Below the pieces are notes generated by a model. It saw nothing but the letters and a program-made list of their open reading frames with translations. It made no database searches and was not told the origin of the DNA. Of a DNA stretch of 25,906 bases, positions 1 to 25,740 are shown piece after piece. The DNA is from Myxococcota bacterium (GTDB lineage Bacteria; Myxococcota_A; UBA796; UBA2385), in NCBI GenBank assembly GCA_044344255.1, contig JBIJDH010000048.1:1-25906 (forward strand), read 5' to 3'. The translations under genes and the position numbers were made by a program. Each line of letters starts with the position of its first letter. Within the stretch, counting starts at the first letter, position 1.

Positions 1-124
1 CCTCAAGCAGGAGACCTCGCGGAAGGTCGGCGTGAAGACGAAGCGCATGAGGGCGGGCTGGGACAACGAATACCTGCTCAAAGTAATTGGCGGATAAATG
101 GGACGTTTAGATGCGATCGCCCTG
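1..124 (+). mobile_element. Right end of ISAs1-family insertion sequence; terminal inverted repeat about 108-124
   Basis: Transposase tail followed by TAGATGCGATCGCCCTG; ISAs1 ends read CAGGGC... inward. CobW homology on the minus strand stops exactly at nt 125. Confidence 0.8.
2..97 (+). CDS. ISAs1-family transposase, C-terminal end (5' part outside window)
   Basis: Frame from nt 2 reads [31 protein letters not shown], matching the characteristic ISAs1 C-terminus (KRxRAGWDxxYLxKV). Confidence 0.85.
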
Positions 125-285
125 GCCTCCCCCTTCACAAGCGCGGCGTCGATGTTGACCTCGCTCATGTCGTTGACGATGACGGCCACACGCCGCCCCT
201 CCCGGTTGGCCAGGACGTGGTTGAGGAGGGTGGTCTTTCCGGCGCCGAGGAAGCCCGAGAGGACGGTGACGGGGAGGCGGGTCAT
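125..285 (-). pseudogene. COG0523/CobW-family (YciC/ZigA-like) metallochaperone GTPase, 5' part, interrupted by IS
   Basis: ATG at 285 gives [53 protein letters not shown], then runs into IS sequence before the expected GCxCC motif. Not in the supplied ORF track. Confidence 0.9.
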
Positions 286-320
286 GTTCAATCCATGTCG
301 GTGACGGGAATGGTGACGCG

Positions 321-926
321 TCACTGGACGGTGAGATCGAAGTCCACAGACGCGTCCGTCGCACCCGGGAGGTCGGTGAAGCCACCGGCCGCTACATCGT
401 CGGCGAGGGCGCCGGTCTTGACGGCGGCGTCGTTCTCCGGCGGCAGGTGGCGCAGCGTGACGGTGAGGACCCCGCTGCCCGCCTGGAGGGTGCCGATGCT
501 GTTCTCGAGCCCCACAGGGAAGCCGTTGACATCGGCGTCATCATAGGCCTGAGAGACGACCGCGGCGGCGCTCTCGCCCGTGGCCGGCCCCTGCACGGCC
601 GAGCCCGTGAAGAACAACTGGTGGACGTCGCTCTCCTCCTGCACCTCGAGCGTGATGTCCTCGGCCGGGTCCTCGAGCTCATTCAGGAAGGACACGGCCA
701 ACGTGTAGTCATCAACTTCAGACAGGGTGATGGGATCGATCACCGGGCTGCCATCATTCTCGGGATCGGCCCAAGACGCGGAGACGGTCGCGCCGCCCGA
801 GGCGGGGACGAAGTCGAGGGTGACGGTGGTGATCACCTCTTCGGGGTTGACCTCATCGGGGTTCTTGACGTCCCCGCAGGCGGCGAAGGCCGAGAAGACG
901 AGCAGGGTCGCGACGGAGCGGTGCAT
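321..926 (-). CDS. Acidic lipoprotein of the type found beside TonB-dependent receptors
   Basis: Signal peptide with lipobox (AFAA-C); [20 protein letters not shown] and LTVTLRH motifs; lies between the TonB receptor and CobW. Confidence 0.75.
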
Positions 927-1031
927 GGATATCTCCAGGATTTCGGACAGGTCCGGTGACCGGACAGGGATGGACAGACAGGACTCAGCCCACGGGGAGC
1001 GGCGGTCCAGCGGCGGACATGGGTTCTCTCA

Positions 1032-3335
1032 TCAGAAGTCGAGGCCCAGCCGGAGCCGCAGCTCCCGGCCGGGCTCGTCGGCGTAGTATCGAAGCAGGCT
1101 CGTGTACTCGCGATAGCGAGCATTCAGGATGTTTCGACCTTCCAGGCCGACCTTGTAGGTCCGCGCGCCGCGCAGGAGCTCGGCGCCGAGGCCCGCGTCG
1201 AAGAGGAGATAGCCTGCGGGGCTGGGGGCGATCTCCGCGCGGGGATCGGTGTGGGTCTGGCGCGCGACGGCGGCGCCCCCGAGCTCCGCGAAGGCCGCGC
1301 GCAGGGGGCCGAGGGCCGGCGGCGCCACCCGAAGATTGACAGAGGCCCGATCGGGAGGGACCATCACGAGGGGCCGCGCGGTCTCTGTGTCGATGCCACG
1401 CACGACCGCCCCCTGCAGGCGTAGCTGCAGCAGGCGCTCTGGGCCGAGGGTGAGCCCGCCGTCTGCGCCGTAGAAGAGGGCGTCGATGGGCCGGAACGAG
1501 AAGCGCGGGAAGGAGCCTTGGATGGTGACGTCGACCCGGGGAGCCCCATCCGCGCCGAGCTCTGGCGCAAAATACACGTAATCATCGATGTAGTTGGCGT
1601 AGGTCGAGGCCTCGGCCTCCAGCCAGGCGGCGCGGAGGCCCAGGGTGGGGCTGGCCCCCCAGGTGGTCTCCGGGCCGAGGCCGGGGGAGCCGAGGGCATA
1701 CACCGGGGAGGTCGGCGCGCTCCCGTTCATGTAGAGCTCGTCGGCGTTTGGGAAGCGGGTCGCCGAGGACAGGTCGAGGCGGGCCTCGAGCGTGTCGGGG
1801 GCGATGTGCCACAGGGCGCCGAGGGACAGGCTGCCCGCGTCGTCCGAGCTGGGACAGGCCGCCGCCGCCGCGGTGAGCGTGCAGTCATCGGGGGAGAGCG
1901 TCTCCCGGGAGACGCTGCGGGAAAAGGCGGAGGGCGTGAGGTAGGCGGTCCGCGAGAGGTGGTCATAGCGGGCCCCCGCCTCCACCGCGAGCGCACCCGC
2001 CGTCCATCGCTCCACACCGAAGACCCCTCCCTGGAGGGCGCTGAAGTTCGGGATCAGGGGAAGCCCGGCGTAGACGTTTTGTTGCGCGACCAGCGAGAGG
2101 CCGAGCCCTCCGTCCACCAGCCCCGCGGCGCCGACGGAGTGGGGGCGGTGATTGAAGGCGGAGTCGACGGAGTGGCTGCGGAGCGTGAAGTCATACTGGG
2201 GCCCGGTGATGGAGGCCCGCGTCTGGTCGTACTCCTGGCGGAGGTTGAGCTGGAAGGCGTAGGTGAGGCGCAGGTCGCCGCCGCCGTCCAGCGCGTGATC
2301 CAGGCGGACCATCGCGAGGTCGTGGGTCACCGCCTGATAGGGCCGGTCAATCTCCGCGGTAGGGGTCCAGCGGTCGGCGCCGATCGGGGTCGTCCGGTCG
2401 AGGCCGGCGGTGAATTCTTCGGGGGTGACGCTGCGGAGGCAATAGCAGACGCCGGCCTGGAGGTCGAAGTGATGCATTGCGACGACGAGGCGGCTGTCTC
2501 CGCGCGTATAGCCGAGGCTGATCCCCGCGTTCCACTCCCGGCTCCCGGTGTTGCCGAGCATGTAGTCGGGGGTGTGGACCGCGGCGCCCACCGCATAATT
2601 ACCCTCCAGGCGCAGAGAGAGTCCGGGCACGGACTCACTCGCGGCATCGACACGAGCCGCCGCCACACCACGTGGTCCGTTCGAGACCCCGACCCCCTGC
2701 GCCCGGCCGCCTGCGCCCGGCTCCGACCGCATCGGCGGGGGATCGACGAGGATCACACCGCCGATGGCGTCCGGGCCATATCGCACCCCCGCCGCCCCCT
2801 TGATGACATGGAGCTCACCCGCCGCGAAGGGGTCAATCTCGGTGGTGTGATCGAGGCCCCACTTCTGGCTCTCGTGCCGTACGCCGTCGAAGAGCACGAG
2901 CAAGCGCCGTTCGAGCTGCCCACGGATGATGGGCTTCGTCGAATCGGAATTCCCGCGGGCAGAGGTCACACCGGGGACCGCCGAGAGGGTCTCACCGAGA
3001 TCGTCCCCGCCCGCCTCCTCGAGCTCGGAGGCGGAGATGGTCTGCACCGCGTGGGTCTCGGTCTCCTTCAGGCTCTGCTCGCCGTAGACCACGATCTCGC
3101 CGACCGGCTCCTCGGCCGCAGGCAGCGCCGGAGCGGGTGGGGGCGAGGTCGCGGCGTCCTCCGCCCGGGCGCACAAGGAAGCCGCCCCCAGCGAGGAGAG
3201 AAGCGCGAGCCCAAGGCCCACCCCACCCGAGCGGCGAGGCCAGGAAAGGGCAGGCCGGCGAGCGTCGCGGACGTGGGCGGGGTTCGGAGTCACACCTCCA
3301 CCGTAGGGCGCGGCGCGCGGCGCGGGGAGTGACAT
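1032..3335 (-). CDS. TonB-dependent outer-membrane receptor (metal uptake inferred from context); start codon uncertain
   Basis: TonB-box-like EIVVYG, plug motifs (KPIIRG, VIKGAAGVRYGPDAIGGVI), C-terminal NILNARY..EPGRELRLRLGLDF ending in Phe. Confidence 0.92.
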   Translation of the reverse strand: MSLPAPRAAPYGGGVTPNPAHVRDARRPALSWPRRSGGVGLGLALLSSLGAASLCARAEDAATSPPPAPALPAAEEPVGEIVVYGEQSLKETETHAVQTISASELEEAGGDDLGETLSAVPGVTSARGNSDSTKPIIRGQLERRLLVLFDGVRHESQKWGLDHTTEIDPFAAGELHVIKGAAGVRYGPDAIGGVILVDPPPMRSEPGAGGRAQGVGVSNGPRGVAAARVDAASESVPGLSLRLEGNYAVGAAVHTPDYMLGNTGSREWNAGISLGYTRGDSRLVVAMHHFDLQAGVCYCLRSVTPEEFTAGLDRTTPIGADRWTPTAEIDRPYQAVTHDLAMVRLDHALDGGGDLRLTYAFQLNLRQEYDQTRASITGPQYDFTLRSHSVDSAFNHRPHSVGAAGLVDGGLGLSLVAQQNVYAGLPLIPNFSALQGGVFGVERWTAGALAVEAGARYDHLSRTAYLTPSAFSRSVSRETLSPDDCTLTAAAAACPSSDDAGSLSLGALWHIAPDTLEARLDLSSATRFPNADELYMNGSAPTSPVYALGSPGLGPETTWGASPTLGLRAAWLEAEASTYANYIDDYVYFAPELGADGAPRVDVTIQGSFPRFSFRPIDALFYGADGGLTLGPERLLQLRLQGAVVRGIDTETARPLVMVPPDRASVNLRVAPPALGPLRAAFAELGGAAVARQTHTDPRAEIAPSPAGYLLFDAGLGAELLRGARTYKVGLEGRNILNARYREYTSLLRYYADEPGRELRLRLGLDF

Positions 3336-3343
3336 GATGTCGC
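3329..3343. promoter_or_regulatory. Imperfect RegA/PrrA-like box GTGAC-N5-GTCGC
   Basis: GTGAC ATGAT GTCGC, one mismatch to the boxes at 3363 and 5179; overlaps the ORF-track ATG of the receptor. Confidence 0.45.
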
Positions 3344-3362
3344 GCGTGGCGAGGTGACGCGG

Positions 3363-3383
3363 GGTGCGACCGTCTGTCGCACC
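3363..3383. promoter_or_regulatory. RegA/PrrA/RegR-like binding box upstream of the TonB receptor
   Basis: Perfect 8-bp inverted repeat GGTGCGAC-CGTCT-GTCGCACC matching the GCGNC-Nx-GNCGC RegA-family consensus. Confidence 0.65.
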
Positions 3384-3405
3384 TCGGCCGCCGCGGACGG
3401 CGGGG

Positions 3406-3915
3406 TCAGCGCGCGGGCGGCAACTTCTGGAGCTTGCGCTGCAAGGTACGGCGGTAGAGCCCCAGCCGACGGGCGGCCTCCGTGATGTTCCCCCCCGATG
3501 CGTGGAGCACCGAGAGGATGTGCGCCCGCTCCACTTGGTCGAGGGAGGCGCTCGGAAGGGGCTCGACCGCGTCCTCGAGGGCGGCGATGAGCTCGGCCCC
3601 CTCGATAGGCTTGGTCAGCACGTCGACTGCGCCAGCCCGCATCGCCTCGACGGCGGTGGGCACTGTGGCGTGGCCGGAGAGCACGATGCAGCGACAGGCC
3701 GGCTGGGCCTCGGCGAGGTGGCGCACCACGTCCACGCCGGAGCCGTCCGGCAGTCGGAGGTCAACCAGGGCGAGGTCGGGCTCCGCTCCCCGGCACACGA
3801 GCAGGGCCTCCCGGAGCCCGCCGGCCGGTAGGACCCGGTAGCCGGCGGCGGTCAGGGCCTCGACGAGGGCCTCCCGGTAGACGGGATCATCTTCGACGAC
3901 GAGCACGGTGGTCAT
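3406..3915 (-). CDS. regA: RegA/PrrA/ActR-family response regulator
   Basis: Receiver domain (VVEDD, VDLRLPDGSG, LTKP) plus short Fis-type HTH NITEAARRLGLYRRTLQRKLQK typical of RegA. Confidence 0.85.
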   Translation of the reverse strand: MTTVLVVEDDPVYREALVEALTAAGYRVLPAGGLREALLVCRGAEPDLALVDLRLPDGSGVDVVRHLAEAQPACRCIVLSGHATVPTAVEAMRAGAVDVLTKPIEGAELIAALEDAVEPLPSASLDQVERAHILSVLHASGGNITEAARRLGLYRRTLQRKLQKLPPAR

Positions 3916-5123
3916 GGCTGGACTTCCGGGATGAGGATGCGCGTCCGTGCGCCTCCGCCCTCCGCCGCTTCGAGGACCACGTCCCCGCCCACCGACTGGG
4001 CGAAGCTGCGGGAGACGAAGAGGCCGAGGCCGGTGCCATCGGTGCCGCTCCAGAAGGGCTCGCCGGCGTGGCGGGCGGCCCCGGCGTCGAGGCCGCGCCC
4101 ATCATCGTCGATGTGCAGCTCCACCGCCCCGGGCCGCACGTGCAGCGAGAGGGTGATGGAGCGGGCGCCGGCCCGCCGCGCGTTGTCGAGGGCCACCCAG
4201 ACCGCTCCCCGCCAGCTCTCTTCGGCGCCTTGGGCCAGGAAGGGGGAGAGCGTCGCCGGGAGACGGACGGCCACCTCCGGCGCGGCCCTCCGCCACTCGA
4301 GGACCCAGGCCGCCAGATCCACCCGGCATGTGGCCGCGCCGGGGGTGTCCCGACCGCGCAGGCGATGAAGGATGGAGCGGCAGCGGGCCACCTGCTCGAG
4401 GAGCCCGTTGAGGGGCGCGTCGAAGTCGTGGCCGCCGCCGCGCCGCCGCGCCTGCTCGGCGAGGAGCTGGATGGCGCCGAGGGGGGTGCCGAGCTCGTGG
4501 GCGACCCCGGCGGCGAGGGTGCCGAGGGCGGCGAGGCGGTCCCTCACGTCATCCTGGTGCTGCGCCGCCTTCTCCGCTGCGCTCTTCGCTCGGAGGGCCG
4601 CGGACAGCCGCGTGACCACCCACGTGATGGCGGCGGCGGAGAGGTCGAAGGTGACCACATGCCCGATCAAGTGGGCGGCGTTGTCCTCGTCGGGGAGCAG
4701 GCCCGACACACTGGCCGGGTGGAAGACGACGAAGGCCTGCAACACCATCGCGGCCGCCGCGGCGGCCCAGGCCTGGGGGGCGGAGAGGAGCATGCCGAGC
4801 AGCGCGAGGTAACCGAGGTAGCCGAAGAGCAGCGGGTTGTGCTGCCCGCCCGACAGCACGAGGATTACCGTCAGGGCTGCGAGATCGACCGCCGCCACGA
4901 GGCCGACCCGCCCAACCGCAGCCGGCCGCTCCCGCAGCCAGAGCGCCTGGAGGAGGTCGAAGCCGCCCCAGGCTGCGAGCAGCGCGAAGAGCGCCGGGCT
5001 GTGGAGGTGCAGCTCGGTGCCCGTCTCCGCGAAGACCATGAGCGCCACCTGCGCCGCCAGGGTCGCCCGTCGGGCGCTGGCCAACCAGCGCAGTCCGAGG
5101 GCGCGGTCGACGAGGTGGGTCAT
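3912..5123 (-). CDS. regB: RegB/PrrB-family membrane sensor histidine kinase
   Basis: About 6 TM segments, GGQHNPL (GGxxNPF-like), H-box AHELGTPL, conserved Cys in ARCRSIL, HATPase DDGRG/GTGLGL; 4-bp overlap with regA. Start placed at ATG 5123 (MTHLVDR). Confidence 0.85.
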   Translation of the reverse strand: MTHLVDRALGLRWLASARRATLAAQVALMVFAETGTELHLHSPALFALLAAWGGFDLLQALWLRERPAAVGRVGLVAAVDLAALTVILVLSGGQHNPLLFGYLGYLALLGMLLSAPQAWAAAAAAMVLQAFVVFHPASVSGLLPDEDNAAHLIGHVVTFDLSAAAITWVVTRLSAALRAKSAAEKAAQHQDDVRDRLAALGTLAAGVAHELGTPLGAIQLLAEQARRRGGGHDFDAPLNGLLEQVARCRSILHRLRGRDTPGAATCRVDLAAWVLEWRRAAPEVAVRLPATLSPFLAQGAEESWRGAVWVALDNARRAGARSITLSLHVRPGAVELHIDDDGRGLDAGAARHAGEPFWSGTDGTGLGLFVSRSFAQSVGGDVVLEAAEGGGARTRILIPEVQP

Positions 5124-5178
5124 CGGCAAGGCACGCTCTCCCTGCAGTGCCGTATTCCGCTCCCCGGCCTCACCCCCT

Positions 5179-5193
5179 GCGACCATTTGTCGC
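5179..5193. promoter_or_regulatory. RegA-like box upstream of regB (putative autoregulation)
   Basis: GCGAC-CATTT-GTCGC, same arms and 5-nt spacer as the box at 3363, about 55 bp upstream of the regB ATG. Confidence 0.6.
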
Positions 5194-5210
5194 GCCACTC
5201 CCAGATCCCC

Positions 5211-5357
5211 GTGCGAGGCGGCCTCCTCAGCGCGCCGCGCGTCGTGGTCGTGTACCCCCACCCGCTCACGCCGGCTCAATTGGCCACCCTGCGCGACCTG
5301 GAGCGGGGGATCCACGCTCAGGGTTGGCGATTGAGCCTCGCCGCCGATGTCGCATAG
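5211..5357 (+). CDS. Possible 48-aa small protein
   Basis: GTG-start ORF (MRGGLLSAPRVVVVYPHPLTPAQLATLRDLERGIHAQGWRLSLAADVA) with globular-looking composition fills the gap between the two two-component systems. Confidence 0.3.
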   Translation: MRGGLLSAPRVVVVYPHPLTPAQLATLRDLERGIHAQGWRLSLAADVA

Positions 5358-13963: not shown

Positions 13964-14279
13964 TCAGGCCCCGCGGAGGTGCAGCGTGCGGCCGCCGACG
14001 AGGCGCTCCTCGCTCCACAAGCGCTCCTCCCAAGTGCGGCCGGGGCGCTGGTCGAAGATCAGCAGCCAGCCCTCCGCCTGCCCCACCGCGTCGAGGTTGC
14101 GACTGAGCTGCTCCATGCCCGCCTGCACCACCCGCTGAAGAAGGCCGATGAAGGCGAGGTGGGCGACGGCCTCGGGGGAACCGTCGGAGGGCCGGCTCCG
14201 GATCACCGCCTCGTCACGCGCCCACAAACCCGGAGGGCGTCGATCAGCGCCGCCCTGTCCAGCCCGTCGTCGGCGCGCC
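13964..14279 (-). pseudogene. Degenerate 3' remnant of the AAA-ATPase/nuclease gene
   Basis: Aligns to the 3' end of the 16949 and 18528 copies (..AVAHLAFIGLLQRVV|QAGMEQL..RTLHLRGA*), with a 138-bp deletion, a 1-bp frameshift near 14230 and many substitutions. Confidence 0.9.
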
Positions 14280-16948: not shown

Positions 16949-18499
16949 TCAGGCCCCGCGGAGGTGGAGCGTGCGGCCCTCGACCACGCGCTCCTCTCGC
17001 CAGAGGCGCTCCGCCCAGGTGCGGCCGGGGCGCTGGTCGAAGATCAGCAGCCAGCCCTCCGCCTGCCCCACCGTGTCGAGGTACCGGCCGAGCTGCTCCG
17101 TGCCCGCCTCCACTGCCCACTCGAGCGCGTCGTGGGCCGGCCGCACCCGCTTGAGCTCGATCACGTGCGACGCCCCCCCGTACTCCACGAGCAGGTCGAT
17201 GGCGCCGCGCCCGGCGGCGAACTCGCGGGTCACCCGGCCCCCGCCGTTCACCACCCGCTGAAGGAAGCCCATGAAGGCGAGGTGGGCCACCGCCTCGGGG
17301 TAGCCGTCGGAGGGCTGGCTGCGGATCATCGCCTCGTTACGCGCCCACCAGACGAGGAAGGCGTCGATCAGCGCCGCCATGTCCAGCCCGCCGTCCTCAC
17401 GCCGCCAGGGCCACCAGGGGGCCGGCAGGTTCGCCTGCCCGTCGGCCGAGAGCTCGCGGGCCAGGACCTCTCGGTACAGGGGGTTCGCGATGGCAGGGGG
17501 TTGAACCTCGTCGGAGATCAAGCCCAGATCGACCGTGTAGCGGAAGTCGTCCGAGGAGATGGAGACGGTGGTGTCTCCGAGCAGCACCGACTGGACGACC
17601 CGCGCCACCCGCGGCTCCCGCAGCCGCTGGCCGAGCGAGTCGAGGTGGGTCGTGCGGGCGCGGATCAGCCGCTCGCGGGCCTCCTCGACGTGGGAGACCT
17701 CGATCGCCACGCCGGGGTGGCGTTCCACGCAGTCGAGGCTGAGCGCGTTGACCAGGAAGGGCTGCCCGCCCGTCTGTTCATGGATCAGCGCCAGCGCCGC
17801 CGCCGAGAAGGCCTGCCCCGTCTCGGCCGTATGCTGCCCCACCAGCTCCACCACCTCCCCCGCATTGAAGTTGCGCAGCGTGAACGAGCCCACCTTGATG
17901 TTGAAGGGCGAGCCCGGGTTGACCGCCACACCGTCCTTCGACTCGGTGAGGTAGTCCCGCAGGTCCCGCATGCCGATGAGGCCCACGCTCACCGGGAAGG
18001 CCCCCACGCCCCGCCCGACGAAGCCCTCGCGGAGCTGCCGGAGGAGGCTCACCGCCGCCGGGCCCGAGAGCACGTCGGCCTCGTCGAGCAGCAGCACCAC
18101 GGGCAGCGGGAGCGCGGCGCACCAGGCCTGGAGGTAGCAGCCGAGCCGGACGCCAGGCTCTTGGAGGATCCAGGGCGTCGGCTCGGGCGGCCGCTGCGCC
18201 GGGGGGAGGTCTCCCGCCCGCTTGAAGATCGACCGCAGCCAGATCGGCTCGGCCTCCGCCACCCCCTCCACGCCCTGGCTCGCCTCGAGGCTCACCCACA
18301 GCGCCACGAGGCCCCGCTCCCGAAGCCGCACCGCCAGGGCGCGCATCGCCGTCGTCTTGCCCACCTGCCGGGGCGCGTGCACCACGAAATACTGCTTGCG
18401 GTCGATGTACGGCACCAGATCGGGCAGCCGCCGCTCGGGCGAGAGCATGTAGTGGTCGGCCGGATCGCAGGGCCCGGTGGTATTGAAGAAGCGCGCCAT
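16949..18499 (-). CDS. AAA-family ATPase fused to C-terminal PD-(D/E)XK nuclease-like domain, copy B
   Basis: MARFFNTTGPC; Walker A APRQVGKTT; Walker B VLLLDEAD; SPFNIK; TGGQPFLVN; C-terminal RE..G.IDLLV..VIELK. Confidence 0.9.
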   Translation of the reverse strand: MARFFNTTGPCDPADHYMLSPERRLPDLVPYIDRKQYFVVHAPRQVGKTTAMRALAVRLRERGLVALWVSLEASQGVEGVAEAEPIWLRSIFKRAGDLPPAQRPPEPTPWILQEPGVRLGCYLQAWCAALPLPVVLLLDEADVLSGPAAVSLLRQLREGFVGRGVGAFPVSVGLIGMRDLRDYLTESKDGVAVNPGSPFNIKVGSFTLRNFNAGEVVELVGQHTAETGQAFSAAALALIHEQTGGQPFLVNALSLDCVERHPGVAIEVSHVEEARERLIRARTTHLDSLGQRLREPRVARVVQSVLLGDTTVSISSDDFRYTVDLGLISDEVQPPAIANPLYREVLARELSADGQANLPAPWWPWRREDGGLDMAALIDAFLVWWARNEAMIRSQPSDGYPEAVAHLAFMGFLQRVVNGGGRVTREFAAGRGAIDLLVEYGGASHVIELKRVRPAHDALEWAVEAGTEQLGRYLDTVGQAEGWLLIFDQRPGRTWAERLWREERVVEGRTLHLRGA

Positions 18500-18527: not shown

Positions 18528-20078
18528 TCAGGCCCCGCGGAGGTGGAGCGTGCGCCCCTCGACCACGCGCTCCTCTCGCCAGAGGCGCTCCGCCCAGGTG
18601 CGGCCGGGGCGCTGGTCGAAGATTAGCAGCCAGCCCTCCGCCTGCCCCACCGTGTCGAGGTACCGGCCGAGCTGCTCCGTGCCCGCCTCCACTGCCCACT
18701 CGAGCGCGTCGTGGGCCGGCCGCACCCGCTTGAGCTCGATCACGTGCGACGCCCCCCCGTACTCCACGAGCAGGTCGATGGCGCCGCGCCCGGCGGCGAA
18801 CTCGCGGGTCACCCGGCCCCCGCCGTTCACCACCCGCTGAAGGAAGCCCATGAAGGCGAGGTGGGCCACCGCCTCGGGGTAGCCGTCGGAGGGCTGGCTG
18901 CGGATCATCGCCTCGTTACGCGCCCACCAGACGAGGAAGGCGTCGATCAGCGCCGCCATGTCCAGCCCGCCGTCCTCACGCCGCCAGGGCCACCAGGGGG
19001 CCGGCAGGTTCGCCTGCCCGTCGGCCGAGAGCTCGCGGGCCAGGACCTCTCGGTACAGGGGGTTCGCGATGGCAGGGGGTTGAACCTCGTCGGAGATCAA
19101 GCCCAGATCGACCGTGTAGCGGAAGTCGTCCGAGGAGATGGAGACGGTGGTGTCTCCGAGCAGCACCGACTGGACGACCCGCGCCACCCGCGGCTCCCGC
19201 AGCCGCTGGCCGAGCGAGTCGAGGTGGGTCGTGCGGGCGCGGATCAGCCGCTCGCGGGCCTCCTCGACGTGGGAGACCTCGATCGCCACGCCGGGGTGGC
19301 GTTCCACGCAGTCGAGGCTGAGCGCGTTGACCAGGAAGGGCTGCCCGCCCGTCTGTTCATGGATCAGCGCCAGCGCCGCCGCCGAGAAGGCCTGCCCCGT
19401 CTCGGCCGTATGCTGCCCCACCAGCTCCACCACCTCCCCCGCATTGAAGTTGCGCAGCGTGAACGAGCCCACCTTGATGTTGAAAGGCGAGCCCGGGTTG
19501 ATCGGCGCGCCGTCCTTCGACTCGGTCAGGTAGTCCCGCAGGTCCCGCATGCCGATGAGGCCCACGCTCACCGGGAAGACGCCCAGGCCGCGGGTGGAGA
19601 AGCCCGCCCGGAGCTGGCGCAGCAGGCTGATGAGCGGCGCGCCGCGCACCACGTCGGCCTCGTCGAGCAGCAGCACCACCGGCCTCGCGCAGCGCGCGCT
19701 CCAGGCGGCGAGCCAGGCGTGGAGGCGCGTGTGCACCGGGAACGACAGCGCCCCGGCCCAGTCGAGCGGGCGCTCCGAAGGCGGGAGCACCATCGCGGCC
19801 TGGTGGATGAATTGGATCCACACGAGCTCCGCGGCCTCGACGGTCTCCACGCCTTGGCTCGCCTCAAGGCTCGCGCAGACCGCCACGTCGCCCCGCTGAC
19901 GCAGGCGCGCGGCGAGCGCGAGCATCGCCGTCGTCTTGCCCACCTGCCGGGGCGCGTGCACCACGAAGTACTGCTTGCGGTCGATGTACGGCACCAGATC
20001 GGGCAGCCGCCGCTCGGGCGAGAGCATGTAGTGGTCGGCCGGGTCGCAGGGGCCGGTGGTGTTGAAGAAGCGCGCCAT
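18528..20078 (-). CDS. AAA-family ATPase fused to C-terminal PD-(D/E)XK nuclease-like domain, copy A
   Basis: Same motifs and same length (516 aa) as copy B; differs essentially only within about aa 54-195. Confidence 0.9.
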   Translation of the reverse strand: MARFFNTTGPCDPADHYMLSPERRLPDLVPYIDRKQYFVVHAPRQVGKTTAMLALAARLRQRGDVAVCASLEASQGVETVEAAELVWIQFIHQAAMVLPPSERPLDWAGALSFPVHTRLHAWLAAWSARCARPVVLLLDEADVVRGAPLISLLRQLRAGFSTRGLGVFPVSVGLIGMRDLRDYLTESKDGAPINPGSPFNIKVGSFTLRNFNAGEVVELVGQHTAETGQAFSAAALALIHEQTGGQPFLVNALSLDCVERHPGVAIEVSHVEEARERLIRARTTHLDSLGQRLREPRVARVVQSVLLGDTTVSISSDDFRYTVDLGLISDEVQPPAIANPLYREVLARELSADGQANLPAPWWPWRREDGGLDMAALIDAFLVWWARNEAMIRSQPSDGYPEAVAHLAFMGFLQRVVNGGGRVTREFAAGRGAIDLLVEYGGASHVIELKRVRPAHDALEWAVEAGTEQLGRYLDTVGQAEGWLLIFDQRPGRTWAERLWREERVVEGRTLHLRGA

Positions 20079-20126: not shown

Positions 20127-20495
20127 TCAGTCCGCCGCCGGGCCGTAGCGCTCGGCGTAGGGCGCGCTCACCACCGTCGCGCGCTGGCCCTCGAGGGTGA
20201 CCACCACCACGGTGGCCGCGCCCTCGCGGCGGATGGAGACCGTCGCCGGGCCCTGGGGCGTCTCCACCCTCCGCTCGCCGCCGAGGCCCGCGGTGAGGGC
20301 GCTCCGGGCCAGCCAGAGGGCCTGCAGACGCACGGCGTCGGCCTCCCGCTGGTGGAGCTCCACCGAGGCGCGGGAGGCCATCACGGCCCCGCTGATGACC
20401 ATCGCCGACAGGACGCTGACCACGAGCAGGAGGGCGTATCCCCGCCGCGCCCGCGGCCCGGCCCCGCGGCGGACCAAGCGACGAAGGGCGCTCAT
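20127..20495 (-). CDS. Minor pilin lacking E5 (GspK/PilX/ComGG-like)
   Basis: Basic leader, RRG|YALLLVVSVLSAMV hydrophobic helix without Glu5, LQALWLARSAL; ATGA overlap with the upstream gene. Confidence 0.75.
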   Translation of the reverse strand: MSALRRLVRRGAGPRARRGYALLLVVSVLSAMVISGAVMASRASVELHQREADAVRLQALWLARSALTAGLGGERRVETPQGPATVSIRREGAATVVVVTLEGQRATVVSAPYAERYGPAAD

Positions 20496-20986
20496 CGGGG
20501 CTCCACGGGGATGAAGACCGAGGTGGTCGTGACCTTCTCCGGCCGCAGCGCCCGGGTGAAGACGACGGTGACCCCGCCGGGCTCGCGGGCGATCGACCGG
20601 ACCCCGCGGGCGAGGGCGCGCGGGCCGCCACAGGCGGCGCTGCGATCGCCGAGGAGCACCCCCTCCGGGGTCACCCGATAGGCCGTGGCGCAGGCCCCGG
20701 GCGCGTCTCCGGCGTCGGCGCGGGTGAGCGTCACCCCGTCGGGCCCCCAGCGCCCGCCGCGGGCCTCGAGCTGCAGCTCTTCGCGGATCGTGCGCAGCTC
20801 GGTCGCCACCTCGAGGTCCCAGAGGGCCAGCGCGTTCACCTCCTCCTGGCCCACCGTGAAGTGGTAGAAGATCGGCAGGAAGAGCGCGAGCAGCGACAGG
20901 GTGCTGAGCAGCTCCACGGCGGTGAAGCCGCGCTGTCCCGCCCCACCGACGCGCCGACGGCGCCCGCTCATCGGGCTCTCCTTCAT
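20492..20986 (-). CDS. Minor pilin/pseudopilin (GspJ/PilW-like position)
   Basis: QRG|FTAVELLSTLSLLALF class III signal; Cys pair; ATGA overlap. Confidence 0.82.
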   Translation of the reverse strand: MKESPMSGRRRRVGGAGQRGFTAVELLSTLSLLALFLPIFYHFTVGQEEVNALALWDLEVATELRTIREELQLEARGGRWGPDGVTLTRADAGDAPGACATAYRVTPEGVLLGDRSAACGGPRALARGVRSIAREPGGVTVVFTRALRPEKVTTTSVFIPVEPR

Positions 20987-21345
20987 CGAGCACCCGGCGT
21001 GAAGACGAGGAGGGAGAGCGACTCTGTGTGGTCGCTCACGACCTGCCCGCGCGGTCCGGCCCAGCGGACGGTGACCAGGGTGCCCTCGGCGCTCGGCCGG
21101 GCCTCGACCGCCGCGCCCCGCAGGGGCTCCTTCAGCCTCGCCTCCACGAGCGGATCGGCGGCGCGGCCCGCGGCGAGGCAGTCCGCCTCGTACTCGAGCA
21201 GCAGGACCGCCCGCTCCCGGGTGAGCGTCGCCTGGGCCCGACGGCGCCACTCGCGCGACGAGAGGCCGGTCAGGGCCAACAGGATGCCGAGACAGGCGAC
21301 CGCGATCATCATCTCGACCAGGGTGTAGCCAGGGCGGGGCCTCAT
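20983..21345 (-). CDS. Minor pilin/pseudopilin (GspI/PilV-like position)
   Basis: MRPRPG|YTLVEMMIAVACLGIL class III signal; VTVRW near the C-terminus. Confidence 0.85.
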   Translation of the reverse strand: MRPRPGYTLVEMMIAVACLGILLALTGLSSREWRRRAQATLTRERAVLLLEYEADCLAAGRAADPLVEARLKEPLRGAAVEARPSAEGTLVTVRWAGPRGQVVSDHTESLSLLVFTPGAR

Positions 21346-22523
21346 GCGGGTCCTTCGGGGGAGCGGAGCTCGGCCTGGGTGAGGAGCTCGGCCACCGGCG
21401 CCCGAACCCGCCCGAGGCCGTGGCAGGCCGCGCAGCCCGCCCCGGCGCAGGCGGCGCAGGGCCGAGGCTCCAGGCGCTGGTGCAGGACGGCCTGGAGGGT
21501 GGAGCGGAGCACGGCGGGGTCGACGCCGAGGTCGAGCAGGCGCTGGGGGGCCTCGCGGGCCGAGCCGGCGTGGAGCCCCGCGAGCACGAGGCGCCCGGTG
21601 TGCGCCGCCTCCAGGGCGAGCGCGGCCTCCCCGGCGGTCCTCACCTCGCCGACGCTGATGACATCGACGTCTTGGCGCAGCGCGCCCACCAGCACGGCCT
21701 GAGCGGTGAGGCCCCGCTCCGGGCAGAGCTCGACCTGATCGACGTCGACGCCCGCGAGCCTCAGCCGCTGCTCGACGGGGTCCTCGATGGACAGGTGCGC
21801 GCCGCCGCCCCGCCCGGCGAGCATCGCCAGCGCCGCGTAGAGCGTCGTCGTCTTGCCGCCGCCGGAGGGGCCCGCCACCAGCACGAGGCCGGAGCGCCGC
21901 GAGAGGGCCCCCTCGAAGCGGGCCCGCACCGCGGGGTCGAGCCCGAGGCGGCCGAGGTCGAGGAGCTGCCCGAAGAGGCGCAGCGCGGCGCGCTCCCCGA
22001 GCGCGGTGGGGAGGAAGCTGGCCCGCAGGTCCGCCGCGACGCCCTGCCGCGCGATCCGCCCCTCCTGGACGATGTCCGCGCGGTACGGCAAGCAGCCTGC
22101 GACGTGCTTGAGCGCGCAGATGAGGCGGGCGCCCGTCGCGGTCGAGAGGGCCACGAAGTCGACGAGCTCTCCCCCGACGCGGAGGCGGCTCCGATATCCG
22201 CCCTGCTGCGGCTCGAGGTGCACGTCCGAGGCGCCAGCGAGGGTCGCCATGTCGATCAAGAGCCGCGCCGCGCGCACGGGCGACCAGCTCTCACCGACGT
22301 AGCGGGCGAAGGCGGCGGCGTCCTCGGCCCGCCGGCCGGTGGGGGCGGGCGGGGTGAGGGCCCGCGCGGCCTCGGGGAGCAGCGCCGCCGGGACCCGCCG
22401 CGGCCCCCCGGCCCGCAGGGTGACGACGGCCCCGTCGAGCGAGGCCATCTCGTCGAAGGAGACAAAGCGGGTGCGGAACCAGCCGACCGGCAGGTCCAGC
22501 CCCTCTTCGCGCCCGGCCCTCAC
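21342..22523 (-). CDS. GspE/PilB/ComGA-family assembly ATPase, short form (393 aa)
   Basis: GASDVHLEP, QEGRI, GERAALRL, Walker A GPSGGGKTTT, SIEDPVE, LRQDVDVISVGEVR, tetra-Cys CAAC..CAAC; GTG start overlapping the upstream stop. Confidence 0.92.
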   Translation of the reverse strand: MRAGREEGLDLPVGWFRTRFVSFDEMASLDGAVVTLRAGGPRRVPAALLPEAARALTPPAPTGRRAEDAAAFARYVGESWSPVRAARLLIDMATLAGASDVHLEPQQGGYRSRLRVGGELVDFVALSTATGARLICALKHVAGCLPYRADIVQEGRIARQGVAADLRASFLPTALGERAALRLFGQLLDLGRLGLDPAVRARFEGALSRRSGLVLVAGPSGGGKTTTLYAALAMLAGRGGGAHLSIEDPVEQRLRLAGVDVDQVELCPERGLTAQAVLVGALRQDVDVISVGEVRTAGEAALALEAAHTGRLVLAGLHAGSAREAPQRLLDLGVDPAVLRSTLQAVLHQRLEPRPCAACAGAGCAACHGLGRVRAPVAELLTQAELRSPEGPA

Positions 22524-23440
22524 TCGAGCATCCCCGGGGTGTAGAGCGAGAAGAAGGCCGCGCCGACGCCCAGCAGGCCGCTCCCCGCCACGAGGAGGGA
22601 GAGGAGCTCGATCCGCGCCGCCGCCTCGGGCAGGGCCCGCTCGAGGGCCAGCCGCCGGTGCTCCAGCAGGGCGCGGAGGGTGGGGAGCGCCGCGCCGGCC
22701 CGCGCGGCGGCGACGAGCTGCGCCACCTCGTAGGGGTGGAGCAGGCCGCTGCCCTCGCGCGGCGCGGCCCCATCGCCCGCCCCCGCCTCCAGCCAGGCCG
22801 CCAGGGCCCGCCCCTCCTCGGCGGCGCCGCGGGAGAGGCCCCCCGCCGCGGCCCGCACCGCGCCCGGGAGCGTCGCCCCGGCCTCGAGGAAGGCCAGGGT
22901 CCCGCCGAGGAGGGCCTGGGCCTCGATGCGCGCCCAGACCGGGCCGAGCAGCGGCAGGGGGAGCCGCGTGAAGACCGCCAGGGCCAGCAGGACCAACACG
23001 CTCACCGCGAGGCCGAGGGCGACCAGCGGCCCGAGGCCGCCCGCGGCCCCCATCGGCAGCGCCTCCACCTGCGGCAACAGCAGCCCCGCGACGACCGCGC
23101 CGGAGAGGGCCACCGAGGCCGCGAGCACCAGCGGGTAGGTGCCTGCGCTGCGCAGCGCCTGCGCGCCCGCAGCGGCCTCCCCGGCGACGAGGAGGGCGCC
23201 CTGGAGCGCGACCACGCCGTCCTTCGCCCCCGCGGCCTGCACCCGCTCCGCCAAGGCCCGGTCGAGCCCGAAGCGGGCCGCCACCTCGCCGAGCGGCGCC
23301 CCGGCCTCGAGCGCCACCGCGAGCCCCCGGGCCTCCGCCGGCCCGAGCCCCGCAGGGTGGCCATTGGCGTGCAGCCGCTCCAGGCGGCGCTGGAGCTCGC
23401 CCACCGAGGCGGCCTGCGCGGCAGACCGCGGGGCGGTCAC
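22520..23440 (-). CDS. GspF/PilC-like inner-membrane platform protein 3
   Basis: LAVALEAGAPLGE..ALRSAGTYPLVLA..LLPQV, second TM, LAFLEAGATLPGAV, C-terminal TM ..SLYTP; GTGA overlap. Confidence 0.72.
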   Translation of the reverse strand: MTAPRSAAQAASVGELQRRLERLHANGHPAGLGPAEARGLAVALEAGAPLGEVAARFGLDRALAERVQAAGAKDGVVALQGALLVAGEAAAGAQALRSAGTYPLVLAASVALSGAVVAGLLLPQVEALPMGAAGGLGPLVALGLAVSVLVLLALAVFTRLPLPLLGPVWARIEAQALLGGTLAFLEAGATLPGAVRAAAGGLSRGAAEEGRALAAWLEAGAGDGAAPREGSGLLHPYEVAQLVAAARAGAALPTLRALLEHRRLALERALPEAAARIELLSLLVAGSGLLGVGAAFFSLYTPGMLE

Positions 23441-24216
23441 GGCGCCTCCAGCAGCAGCGGGAAGGAGAGGTAGACCGAGGCGGTGGCGCCCAAGGCGAGC
23501 ACGAAGAGGACCCCAAAGCCGACGAGGCGGGTCACCGCCACGAAGCGCCGGTGCGCCGTGGTGGCGGCCCCGAGCGCGTGGGCGACCACCGCCTCGAGCT
23601 CCGCGCTGTCGGCCCCCTCCCCCCGCAGCGCCGTGCAGGTGCGCGCGTAGGCCGCCCGCGTGTCGGCCGGCGCCCCGGCGTCGAGCAGGGCCAGCGCGAA
23701 GCTCGCCTCCTTCGCCCGCAAGAGCGAGCGGTTCCACGTGGCCCCGAGGCCCCGCTGCCGCGTCCCGAGCGCCGCCGCGAGGCCGAAGCCCAGGCTCAGG
23801 AGGAGGAAGAGCACCTCTGCGAAGCCGAGGAGGAGGGTGGACTGCGCCTCGACGGCGGGCCCCATCGCCCACAGCCCCGGCAGCACCTTCGCGTTCAGGA
23901 CCACCAGCACGAGGCACTGGGCCGCGACGATGAAGCTGAAGTACGCGAGCGTCTGCAGCAGCGGCGCTTGGAAGACCAGGGCCGAGGGCAGGGCCCGCAG
24001 CCGCACGAGCGCCGGGCGGAGCGCGGCGGGCCAGCAGAGGCCGAGCGCCACGAGGTCGGCCGAGAAGCCCGAGCGACGGAGCCCCTCCTCCAAGGAGCCG
24101 GCCTCAAAGGCCGCCCGCGCGCCAGGCGGCAGCAGCCCCTCCACCTGGGCCCCGGCCGGCGCCCCCTCCGCGAGGGCCGCCGCCACGAGGAGCGCGCCGG
24201 CGCGCCGCTCCCTCAT
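23437..24216 (-). CDS. GspF/PilC-like inner-membrane platform protein 2
   Basis: GSLEEGL, LAYF..KVLPGL TM, second TM, FALALLDAGAP, C-terminal TM ..SVYLSFP; ATGA overlap. Confidence 0.62.
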   Translation of the reverse strand: MRERRAGALLVAAALAEGAPAGAQVEGLLPPGARAAFEAGSLEEGLRRSGFSADLVALGLCWPAALRPALVRLRALPSALVFQAPLLQTLAYFSFIVAAQCLVLVVLNAKVLPGLWAMGPAVEAQSTLLLGFAEVLFLLLSLGFGLAAALGTRQRGLGATWNRSLLRAKEASFALALLDAGAPADTRAAYARTCTALRGEGADSAELEAVVAHALGAATTAHRRFVAVTRLVGFGVLFVLALGATASVYLSFPLLLEAP

Positions 24217-25013
24217 CCTGCGTCGTCCAGGAGGGCGAGGCTCCAGAAGAGCGGCTGGGCGACGAGCGCCAACACCCCCGTCACGACCAAAAAGCTGAGG
24301 ATCGCCCACCCCACCGGGGCCAGCGCCCGCGCGAGGTCGAGCGAGCGGCGCCCCTCGGCGAGGAGCTCAGCCGCCAGCTCCTGCGCGGCCTGGCCCTCGC
24401 CCACGACGGCGCGGCGCTGCAAGAAGTAGCGGCGCTCGACGGGCGGGAGCCGCGCCTCCTCGACCGCGCCGCCGCCGGCCGCCGCGTCCAGCAGCGCCGC
24501 CGCCCGTTGGCCCTCGGCCGCTCCCGGCGCGAAGGTGAGCTCTGCCCGTCCGAGGCCAACGATCGCCGCCAGCGCGAGCGGCAGGCCGACGAAGCGGGCC
24601 GCCGCGCACACCGCCAGCAGCAGGCCCGCCACCGGGGAGGGCGACTCCGCGAGGGAGGGGAATTCCGGCAGGATCCAGCCCCACAGCGCGGCGACGACCA
24701 GCGGGAGCGCCACCGAGACCTGGAGTAGCCCCCGCGTGGCGCCGAGCGCGCTGTCGGCGCCGAGGCGCGCTTCCACGGCGGACGCCGCCCGCTCGAGCTG
24801 CTCCACCGACCCGGTGAGGCCGCCGAGGCCCGCCCCGCGCCCCTGCGCCCGCCCCGCCCGGAGCGCCGCCAGGGCCTCGTTCGCCTCCTCCCGCAGCGCG
24901 CCCGCGGGCAAGGCCGTGCAGGCCAGCTCAATGGCCTGCGCCTGCCCGAGCCCGCTCTGGACCAGCCCCGCCACCTGACGGTAGAGCAAGCCGCGCTGCT
25001 CGAGGGGGCTCAC
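24213..25013 (-). CDS. GspF/PilC-like inner-membrane platform protein 1
   Basis: LYRQVAGLVQSGLGQAQAI (T2SSF-like start), TM ending ILPEF, second TM, C-terminal TM ..AQPLF; GTGA overlap with the pilin stop. Confidence 0.72.
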   Translation of the reverse strand: MSPLEQRGLLYRQVAGLVQSGLGQAQAIELACTALPAGALREEANEALAALRAGRAQGRGAGLGGLTGSVEQLERAASAVEARLGADSALGATRGLLQVSVALPLVVAALWGWILPEFPSLAESPSPVAGLLLAVCAAARFVGLPLALAAIVGLGRAELTFAPGAAEGQRAAALLDAAAGGGAVEEARLPPVERRYFLQRRAVVGEGQAAQELAAELLAEGRRSLDLARALAPVGWAILSFLVVTGVLALVAQPLFWSLALLDDAG

Positions 25014-25441
25014 TCGAGCTCGTCCTGGACCACGAGGTTGAGGTCGCGCCCGCTCAGGGTGTAGCGCGAGGGCAGGCCGTCGCGGTCGAGGTCACCCTCC
25101 GCCAGCACCATGAAGGAGTCCCCCTCGAGCGCCACCCCGTAGCGGTAGGCCACCGGCCCGTCGATCGAGATGCCGAGGCTCTTCCAGCAGGCGGCGTCCC
25201 CCGGGAATGCCGCCGGGCGGCTCGGCACCGGCCCGCTCGGCGCACAGGCGAGGAAGGCCCCCTGGTCCCGATAGTGGCGCAGCTCCGCGTGCGCGATCGC
25301 CACCACCACCGTCCGCGCCTCGCTGGCCCGGGCCCGCCGCACCAGCACCTGGTACCCCGGGATGGCGAGGGAGGTGATGATCGCCATCACCGCGAGCACC
25401 GCGCTCAGCTCGAGGATGGTGAAGCCGCGTCGTTCGCCCAA
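25010..25441 (-). CDS. Type IV pilin (probable major pilin)
   Basis: ERRG|FTILELSAVLAVMAIITSLAIPGY..RARASEA, Cys pair, FMVLAEGDLDRDG; TTG start at 25441 after GGAGG. The frame stays open upstream to 25726 through the repeat array. Confidence 0.9.
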   Translation of the reverse strand: MGERRGFTILELSAVLAVMAIITSLAIPGYQVLVRRARASEARTVVVAIAHAELRHYRDQGAFLACAPSGPVPSRPAAFPGDAACWKSLGISIDGPVAYRYGVALEGDSFMVLAEGDLDRDGLPSRYTLSGRDLNLVVQDELE

Positions 25442-25522: not shown

Positions 25523-25740
25523 GCCCTTCGGGGCCATCGTTTCGCCCTTCGGGGCCATCGCACTGCCCTTCGGGGCCATCGCACTGCCCTTCGGGGCCAT
25601 CGCATCGCCCTTCGGGGCCATCGCACTGCCCTTCGGGGCCATCGCACTGCCCTTCGGGGCCATCGCACTGCCCTTCGGGGCCATCGCAGCGCCCTTCGGG
25701 GCCATCGCACTGCCCTTCGGGGCCATCGTTTCGCCCTTCG
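25523..25740. repeat. 21-bp tandem array: 10 full units plus one partial
   Basis: Invariant 17-mer GCCCTTCGGGGCCATCG starting at 25523+21n; 4-nt linkers TTTC, CACT, CACT, CATC, CACT, CACT, CACT, CAGC, CACT, TTTC. Confidence 0.97.

Follow-up and report, generated by a model that had tools for sequence, protein, structure and literature searches.

A conserved type IV filament cassette with three platform paralogues in an uncultured Myxococcota genome

Type IV filament systems as described carry one platform gene each; in Tad and Epd there are two, each encoding a single-domain half (PMC10191384, PMC6668835). An operon in the genome of an uncultured Myxococcota bacterium (assembly GCA_044344255.1) encodes three different GspF/PilC-type proteins, here termed F1, F2 and F3, and raises the question of whether these build a single platform in which every position is held by a different chain. 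The stretch analysed (the window) is the entire 25,906-bp contig C6 (JBIJDH010000048.1) of a genome of 8.2 Mb and 71.6% GC, and the operon, referred to as the cassette, occupies 20127..25441. We find that the cassette is a real, conserved new type IV filament variant; on structural modelling F1, F2 and F3 probably form one heterotrimeric 1:1:1 platform (probability roughly 0.75). Of all steps in the assembly of type IV filaments, the oligomeric state and motion of the platform are understood least. GspF/PilC family members have been proposed or shown to be trimers (PMC10790770, PMC10191384 and PMC11525922, among others); the evidence given there for the trimer consists of modelling, a single cross-linking study and fits at low resolution, including a PilC trimer model that fits in-situ density (PMC11525922).

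Gene layout, identity and conservation

The eight genes are listed below with their lengths in amino acids (aa); platform proteins are described by two cytoplasmic domains (Cyto1, Cyto2) and three transmembrane helices (TM1 to TM3).

25010..25441, minus strand: major pilin, 143 aa, TTG start behind GGAGG
24213..25013, minus strand: F1 platform paralogue, 266 aa, Cyto1 canonical-like, Cyto2 shrunken, TM3 Pro kept
23437..24216, minus strand: F2 platform paralogue, 259 aa, the most diverged of the three, TM3 channel position taken by Arg/Lys
22520..23440, minus strand: F3 platform paralogue, 306 aa, closest to PilC, Cyto2 full-size, TM1 Tyr-Pro kept
21342..22523, minus strand: ATPase of PilB/GspE extension type, 393 aa, PF00437
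20983..21345, minus strand: minor pilin, I/PilV-like, 120 aa, PF07963 over cut-off and family alignment
20492..20986, minus strand: minor pilin, J/PilW-like, 159-164 aa, PF07963 weak
20127..20495, minus strand: minor pilin, K/PilX-like, small, without Glu5, 122 aa, GspK model and family alignment

An open reading frame check of the window recovered all eight genes at the place and with the lengths given by an earlier interpretation of this DNA (hereafter the sequence-only reading), including its seven consecutive junctions, each a 4-bp ATGA/GTGA overlap. GC content at third codon positions was 0.92-0.98 across the genes, and hydropathy reproduced the 2+1 hydrophobic pattern that had been described for F1, F2 and F3. 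Elsewhere in the genome 4-bp overlaps were called for 23/99 same-strand neighbours, an upper figure, as the gene caller favours starts with such overlaps, and because the background is at most this high, seven of seven lies far beyond chance. An alternative start at 20971 is possible for one minor pilin gene; nearly all relatives keep the 4-bp overlap there. Three lake-water DNA runs from other studies covered all 30 bins with zero indels in the unit, and one lake-water contig matched 22663-25520 without any difference, and frameshifts therefore do not account for the three F genes. The contig ends 465 bp upstream of the pilin start of the unit; this start is trusted despite the contig edge because in relatives with 2-6 kb of upstream DNA the unit likewise begins at the pilin. 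The eight-gene unit contains no secretin, prepilin peptidase, alignment or retraction gene, so that the description of the unit as minimal holds for the cassette itself, but not for the genome, in which a PilD-type peptidase and three secretins are encoded at other places.

Single F sequences fell at or below the Pfam cut-off, with PF00482 matching F3 at E 9.4e-5 and F1 at 0.005 and giving no match to F2. Across the families, PF00482 was found at E<=0.05 in 21/23 F3 homologues and 11/16 F1 homologues, and in 4/39 divergent F2-family members. Against an alignment of 16 PilC/GspF-type proteins, hhalign gave 98.8% for F3 over 282 columns (PilC residues 69-397), 85.8% for F2 (TM1 to the C-terminus) and 82.8% for F1 (Cyto1 and TM1). 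A search of 1.84 billion representatives with the F2 profile returned 147 proteins (50%-identity clusters), nearly all of 240-290 aa or fragments, and canonical PilC was absent from them. A profile of 39 divergent F2 members found the PilC of the genome (4.4e-16), the PilC of 3jc8 (2e-13) and PilC-sized frames in 349/401 genomes of a phylum sample, the link between F2 and PilC appearing only with this divergent-member subset. First PDB profile searches with shallow F1-F3 alignments gave nothing significant, and a wide structural search of the PDB with F2 gave generic helical bundles and nothing clear. AlphaFold2 models reached a pLDDT (predicted local distance difference test) score of 88.5 for F2 and 90.5 for F1. 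Residues 2-92 of the F1 model matched the OutF Cyto1 crystal structure (Z 6.4, root-mean-square deviation (rmsd) 2.4, 88 aligned) and the PilC N-terminal domain (Z 6.2, rmsd 2.7, 84 aligned), and whole-model fold searches of F1 and F2 returned nothing significant (F1 to PilC 3jc8: Z 7.6, rmsd 8.6, 163 aligned); the nearest Atlas structure to F2 was a predicted T2SSF-family cluster protein (template modelling score 0.58 over residues 1-259). Direct comparisons among the three were weak (mutual hhalign 4% for F1/F2, 26% for F1/F3 and 74% for F2/F3), and their raw pairwise identity of 30-36% is mostly composition (z 1.2-3.6 vs shuffles).

Hydropathy, models and profile alignments place Cyto1-TM1-TM2-Cyto2-TM3 in one chain in each F protein. 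The N-domain is absent from all three; PulF does not need this domain for trimer formation (PMC10790770). Cyto1 is near full size (medians of 93-99 residues before the TM1 Tyr), and Cyto2 measures 105 residues in F3 and ~69 in F1 and F2, vs ~116 in PilC, a shortening of about 40 residues in F1 and F2. On these profile comparisons each of F1, F2 and F3 is a GspF/PilC homologue with two domains, an identity that is settled because the family profiles, and not borderline single sequences, match PilC/GspF. The homology proposed by the sequence-only reading was thereby borne out through hhalign, PF00482 on families and the F2-family profile; the PF00482 check that it suggested succeeded for the F3 and F1 families and failed for F2 itself. 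Fragments or frameshifts of fewer genes were ruled out by the full architecture of each protein, the lake-water DNA and the conserved gene order, and TadB/TadC-like halves by the presence of two domains and three transmembrane helices in each.

F2 was found as a single copy in 18/182 genomes of the class (12/82 among the good ones), in five families of two orders; distribution in the class is patchy, at about a tenth of genomes. ATPase orthologues at 59-66% identity were present in 9/60 relatives, and at least 157 proteins matched at E<=1e-90; in the 401-genome phylum sample, where four candidates were scored per genome, all 9 ATPase matches (that of the window included) lay within the class. 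Among 19 genomes with any part of the cassette, 12 have all eight genes contiguous in unchanged order, contig ends cut a further six, and the last (G035) is discussed below. F1-F2-F3 are adjacent in 17/19, the other two being contig-cut. From 173 confirmed metagenome loci 80 were taken, 29 of which fell in the cassette clade; after L025, L026 and L030 had been dropped as duplicates of genomes, 26 distinct loci were left, 11 with all three F genes and 15 cut by contig ends, with no deviation in order. Wherever a contig spans the region, in genomes or metagenome loci, there are never fewer or more than three F genes; each genome has one copy of each, and the 4-bp coupling is kept in most relatives, so that the survey of relatives upheld the predicted conservation of the triplet. 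In a Myxococcales genome the accession numbers of F2 (P0093) and the ATPase (P0263), both on one 36-kb contig, differ by two. Flanking genes, judged from translated N-termini, vary from locus to locus; the cassette lies close to an F-type ATP synthase operon in L113/L022 and L115 (two genomes of one genus), which was not seen elsewhere. A platform tree separated three groups (F1 97, F2 86, F3 99) with F2 and F3 as sisters at 94, and gave no placement of F1 against F2+F3 or against other families; it was made by a quick method and is subject to long branches, compositional bias and trimmed N-termini of the comparison rows.

Predicted F1-F2-F3 ring and competing explanations

F1, F3 and F2 were modelled together with F2 as the scored partner, in three runs and with three controls. 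The three proteins scored 0.76 in three runs vs 0.54 for the best control, with run agreement of at least 87% of contacts and partner pLDDT of at least 77. The control at 0.54 keeps F1 and F2 together and so reflects one of the two joints; the two controls in which F2 was replaced both scored 0.00. In calibration, which applies only roughly here, the score mark was reached by 116/157 solved complexes and 2/215 mismatched pairs. The predicted contacts are directional, F1 190-245 (Cyto2, TM3) lying on F2 1-99 (Cyto1, TM1) and F2 197-242 on F3 18-120, with predicted errors of 1.6-2.0 Å at both joints, and their head-to-tail order is the gene order. Interface lists include F1 P233 with F2 Y92/F95 and F2 R230/L231 with F3 104-105. 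In PulF, cross-links join V171 (TM1, Tyr+3) of one protomer and P371 (TM3) of its neighbour (PMC10790770), and the equivalents of these two residues (F1 233, F2 95, F2 231 and F3 105) are all in the predicted interface lists, matching the predicted contacts to the geometry of the cross-linked PulF trimer.

GspF/PilC proteins conserve a Tyr-Pro pair in TM1 and a Glu-Pro pair in TM3, which line a proposed ion channel (PMC10790770). With the register taken from the F2 and F3 profile alignments to PilC, the TM1 Pro occurs in F3 only (22/23) and the TM3 Pro in F1 only (16/16, mostly after Ala). The TM1 Tyr is kept in 19/23 F3, 88/126 F2 and 8/16 F1 sequences, and the site of the PilC Glu is mostly Ala in F1, Arg/Lys in F2 (113/126) and Gln/His/Glu in F3 (22/23). 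No F protein has Tyr-Pro and Glu-Pro in the same chain. By this alignment the full canonical set is present in no single paralogue and the three together are nearly complete, a partition that fits the prediction of subfunctionalisation within one ring. Only F3-Cyto2 and F1-Cyto1 are still recognisable by Pfam. These two domains would be neighbours at the closing joint, and because they adjoin there and the Cyto2 domains of F1 and F2 are down by ~40 residues, the proposed ring would be asymmetric, probably with one favoured motor-coupled, pilin-loading side.

The cassette would, on this evidence, be a self-contained unit for type IV filament assembly. Its PilA-like major pilin and I-J-K-like priming pilins may be cleaved in trans by the two-domain PilD-type peptidase encoded on contig C52 (a further peptidase gene, on C83, is linked to Tad). 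F1, F2 and F3 would form an obligate 1:1:1 inner-membrane ring in place of the usual PilC/GspF homotrimer, with Cyto2/TM3 of F1 on Cyto1/TM1 of F2 and Cyto2/TM3 of F2 on Cyto1/TM1 of F3, as modelled, and F3 presumably closing the ring on F1. A dedicated hexameric extension ATPase may dock directly on the ring, as in models of Com and T2SS (type II secretion system) machines, and would need no PilM/GspL because its N1 domain is absent. The product would be a thin PilA-type filament, putatively primed by I-J-K and without a retraction ATPase of its own. We give about an even chance to its exit through a borrowed secretin such as PilQ; that it stays in the periplasm as an endopilus is a serious possibility, if short of even. 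Beside the type IVa pilus, T2SS and Tad of the host the cassette would be an accessory machine, minimal as a cassette and probably borrowing parts.

Several points weigh against this reading. The scoring covered the F1-F2 and F2-F3 joints of the mixed combination; proteins closely related to a true partner pass such scoring too, a pass may lean on likeness to known PilC models, and the score is a measure of model confidence, not of binding. Of the 1:1:1 asymmetric platform that had been proposed, two joints are thus modelled, whereas ring closure and stoichiometry are extrapolated from them. The predicted F2 interface is no more conserved than the rest of the protein (1.58 vs 1.67 bits, 126 rows). 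Some of the best-scored F2-F3 contacts involve F3 residues 19-30, which are absent from F3 of L016, L018 and L032/L145, whose short forms lack the first ~50 residues. Foldseek, suggested as a check by the sequence-only reading, found no match at E<=0.001 with the whole models of F1 and F2. In genome G035, I-J-K sit on another contig. Every named homologue of the ATPase or F2 comes from a metagenome-assembled genome (labelled Myxococcota, Myxococcales, Archangium sp. or Deltaproteobacteria), with no cultured host among them.

A different division of labour would make F3, or F3 with F1, the only platform coupled to the motor (homotrimer or 2:1 trimer), with F2 and perhaps F1 as a degenerate stator or pilin chaperone replacing PilMNO/GspLM. 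The shortened Cyto2 of F1 and F2, the missing PF00482 match of F2 with its basic residue at the channel Glu in 113/126, and the lack of alignment proteins in the cassette would all suit such an arrangement. It is nevertheless unlikely: F2 is modelled with two ordered joints through its TM1 and TM3 faces, those that form the ring in PulF; F3 lacks the TM3 Pro, so that no paralogue has the full motif set; and F3 can lose half its Cyto1, as in variants of 240-246 aa from three families (L016:8086-8820, L018:6579-7319, L032:5268-5990 and L145:8133-8852). Paralogues of an oligomer often keep self-binding, and the modelling covered the mixed F1-F2-F3 combination and its controls; the three could build separate or exchangeable platforms, as three homotrimers or mixed ones, for example one per pilin type or step. 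We regard this as improbable to a greater degree, given that a cassette has a single ATPase and a single major pilin, exactly three genes kept in fixed order with coupled translation, complementary motif loss, and the small predicted errors of the F1-F2 and F2-F3 joints.

The cassette could also serve the type IVa machine of the host as an add-on, the F proteins and pilins of the cassette swapping into the PilMNOPQ cage with or without PilC, and would then be no machine in its own right. In keeping with this, the pilin is a PilA homologue, a canonical PilC-like match is also present in 8/8 phylum-sample genomes in which F2 matches at full length, and 5/5 further cassette genomes have 3-4 secretins each; these same counts mark the cassette as an accessory machine. 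Also in line with an add-on, family f4 of the same order has neither PilC-like matches to the divergent F2 profile (0/21 genomes) nor F2 (0/49), and this family may have lost type IVa pili altogether. Against the add-on stand an ATPase of the cassette's own without the PilM/GspL-binding N1 domain, its own priming pilins, and the lack of linkage to type IVa pilus genes in any locus inspected; we consider it very unlikely, and it overlaps the heterotrimer reading on secretin use.

A lineage that keeps exactly three diverged, coupled platform genes provides independent genetic support for a trimer. If F1, F2 and F3 do form one ring, each ring position would be a different protein that can be separately mutated, tagged and cross-linked, and symmetry would no longer blur tests of rotary vs gyratory models, or of the proposed ion channel, by cryo-electron microscopy or single-molecule methods. 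Eight small genes and a peptidase would make a compact unit for heterologous reconstitution. Earlier surveys probably missed the family because F1 and F2 fall below the Pfam cut-off.

Comparison with described filament systems

The cassette resembles the type IVa pilus in its PilA-homologous major pilin, PilB-type ATPase, PilC-homologous platform and I-J-K-like set (PilV-W-X), but has three short platform genes in place of one, no PilT, PilMNOP, PilQ, PilY1, FimU/H or peptidase in the unit, and an ATPase without MshEN/N1 that scores 188 bits vs the PilB cut-off of 676. With the Com pilus of monoderms (ComGA-GG, ComC) it shares the restriction to pilins, extension ATPase and platform, the lack of an alignment complex and a platform without N-domain (PMC10191384, PMC10790770); it differs in having three paralogues vs a single ComGB, 1+3 pilins vs 1+4, an ATPase at 152.8 vs the ComGA cut-off of 300, a PilA-type pilin and a diderm host (TonB receptors, secretins). 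The label 'ComG-like' of the sequence-only reading therefore fits the gene count, but not the ATPase score, the pilin, or the separate clade of the ATPase. Likeness to the T2SS (GspE, GspF/PulF, GspG-K) lies in the platform fold, the predicted TM1/TM3 ring geometry of the PulF trimer and a small K-like pilin; GspC, D, L, M and H are missing, the pilin is unlike the host GspG, the ATPase scores 194/630 bits, and the Tyr-Pro/Glu-Pro channel motifs are split and altered in F1-F3.

Tad (TadB/TadC) and the archaeal Epd pilus also have more than one platform gene per system and a hetero-oligomeric platform. The Tad 'heterotrimer' is modelled as three TadB-TadC pairs (PMC12019362, PMC11300603), and TadB and TadC are single-domain halves from gene fission (PMC6668835). 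The Tad ring is three-fold symmetric, whereas F1-F3 each have two domains and three transmembrane helices, and the ring of the cassette would be without symmetry. Its ATPase is not of TadA type, nor its 143-aa PilA-like pilin of Flp type.

Defining features of the type IVa pilus, T2SS, Com pilus and Tad pilus are accordingly missing from the cassette, in agreement with the earlier expectation that its layout matches no described subtype, as far as the available texts go. Those that mark the type IV filament superfamily at large are present (ATPase, GspF/PilC platform, class III prepilins, shared peptidase); under the definition in PMC6668835 the cassette could rank as 'generic' at most, provided that F3 passes the platform profile. 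No three-platform system was found in the literature, most subscription papers and supplements (e.g. the system tables of PMC6668835) lying outside the coverage of this search.

Related arrangements with two platform genes were present among the metagenome loci, in the order ATPase-F-F-minor pilins in L053, L059, L060, L065 and L072 and F-F-ATPase in L051 and L103; L075 has the ATPase followed by two platform genes, and L077 is also a compact two-paralogue cassette. They share tandem GspF/PilC paralogues and short N1-less ATPases, in other phyla, but their platforms measure 340-400 aa, two per locus, and several lack an adjoining major pilin. As far as we found, they have not been described in print. 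Their kinship to the eight-gene family is weakly supported (85-86 in a quick ATPase tree, no resolution in the platform tree). A bolder proposal, which we put forward tentatively and hold to be somewhat doubtful as a whole, is that the cassette is an unnamed type IV filament subtype with an obligate, fully asymmetric heterotrimer, a fixed motor-coupled and pilin-loading side, a rebuilt or plugged channel (Arg/Lys of F2), no symmetric three-jaw mechanism and no alignment proteins, the most reduced of a wider overlooked N1-less multi-platform group in Myxococcota and other phyla.

Pilins, ATPase, host machines and neighbouring genes

The major pilin matches TIGR02532 over cut-off and has, in an alignment of 16, a GFxxxE cleavage site, a conserved Cys pair and a D-L-D-x-D-G loop. 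It is a full-length homologue of the type IVa PilA of the genome (33% identity over 130 aa, E 1e-12), gave no match to the GspG of the genome, and its family profile had as best PDB match a 208-aa PilA (8tj2); by these comparisons it is type IVa PilA-like, not ComGC- or GspG-like. Minor pilin I matches TIGR02532 over cut-off (class III signal peptide), J keeps the prepilin motif with conserved F-T-x-x-E-L and two Cys, and K, without Glu5, matches the GspK model at E 6.8e-4 on residues 18-68. The labels I/PilV and J/PilW are provisional, that of I following gene order and size. A search of solved structures gave N-terminal matches only for I and J and no match for K. The unit contains no H/FimU or PilY1.

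A tandem repeat lies upstream of the pilin:

25523..25728, no strand: 9.8 tandem copies of a 21-bp unit, upstream of the pilin and outside the conserved cassette

The repeat is in frame with the pilin open reading frame and would read as a 7-residue repeat. In the alignment, homologous pilins start at an M-R-R-G-F leader without it, and it is probably a variable element of the promoter region that does not code for protein. A promoter scan found no promoter; at this GC none is expected by chance. One metatranscriptome yielded no contig for the unit, which says nothing for or against its expression.

The ATPase matches PF00437 at E 4.8e-57. Walker A/B, Asp box and Arg fingers are invariant in 120/120 sequences, as are K224, E247, E251, D285, E293, R159/R167/R182 and H318, and the first His of the His box is replaced by Arg. 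The protein lacks the MshEN/N1 domain and has a family-specific N-terminus of ~75 aa, a compact Cys motif and a shortened C-terminus; its alignment to the host PilB begins at residue 83 (31%). For a PH-like domain, at first suspected at the N-terminus, there was no Pfam match, and Atlas matches of this region to GspE N1E clusters were all under 0.9. An invariant, family-specific loop at 143-155 may lie where PilB-type motors are proposed to face the platform (PMC12019362, PMC11300603). The ATPase is nearest to the GspE/PilB models and falls below every NCBIfam cut-off. In a tree of 58 of 85 distinct rows it formed its own long clade (100) apart from PilB, GspE and PilT, so the ATPase phylogeny that had been suggested gave a separate, fully supported clade, in a neighbourhood biased by the retrieval of outside rows with the family's own motifs.

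Also encoded in the genome are a type IVa pilus (C23 with pilC and a PilB over cut-off, C20 with pilMNOPQ-like genes, C4 with a PilT-like gene), a T2SS at C59 and two Tad clusters at C83 and C65, and each of the genome's three secretins lies within one of these clusters. Its PilB is closest to PilB structures that we take to be of deltaproteobacterial type. Three orphan PilB/GspE-like ATPases (G000 C74:93006, C49:35515 and C7:240450) have no neighbouring pilus genes; that at C49 has an N-terminal cyclic-nucleotide-binding domain.

In the window the cassette is followed by tandem 516-aa genes (16949-18499 and 18528-20078, minus strand; 1412/1551 bases identical) that encode an AAA-type ATPase whose C-terminus weakly matches a NucS-like nuclease, an association present in no relative inspected. 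A remnant of this family lies near 13964-14206, downstream of the tandem pair. Positions 1-5315 (minus strand) hold a two-component pair, a TonB-dependent receptor and a lipoprotein, resembling a metal-uptake unit, together with a gene start at the contig edge that is presumably of a P-loop GTPase, judging from its N-terminus.

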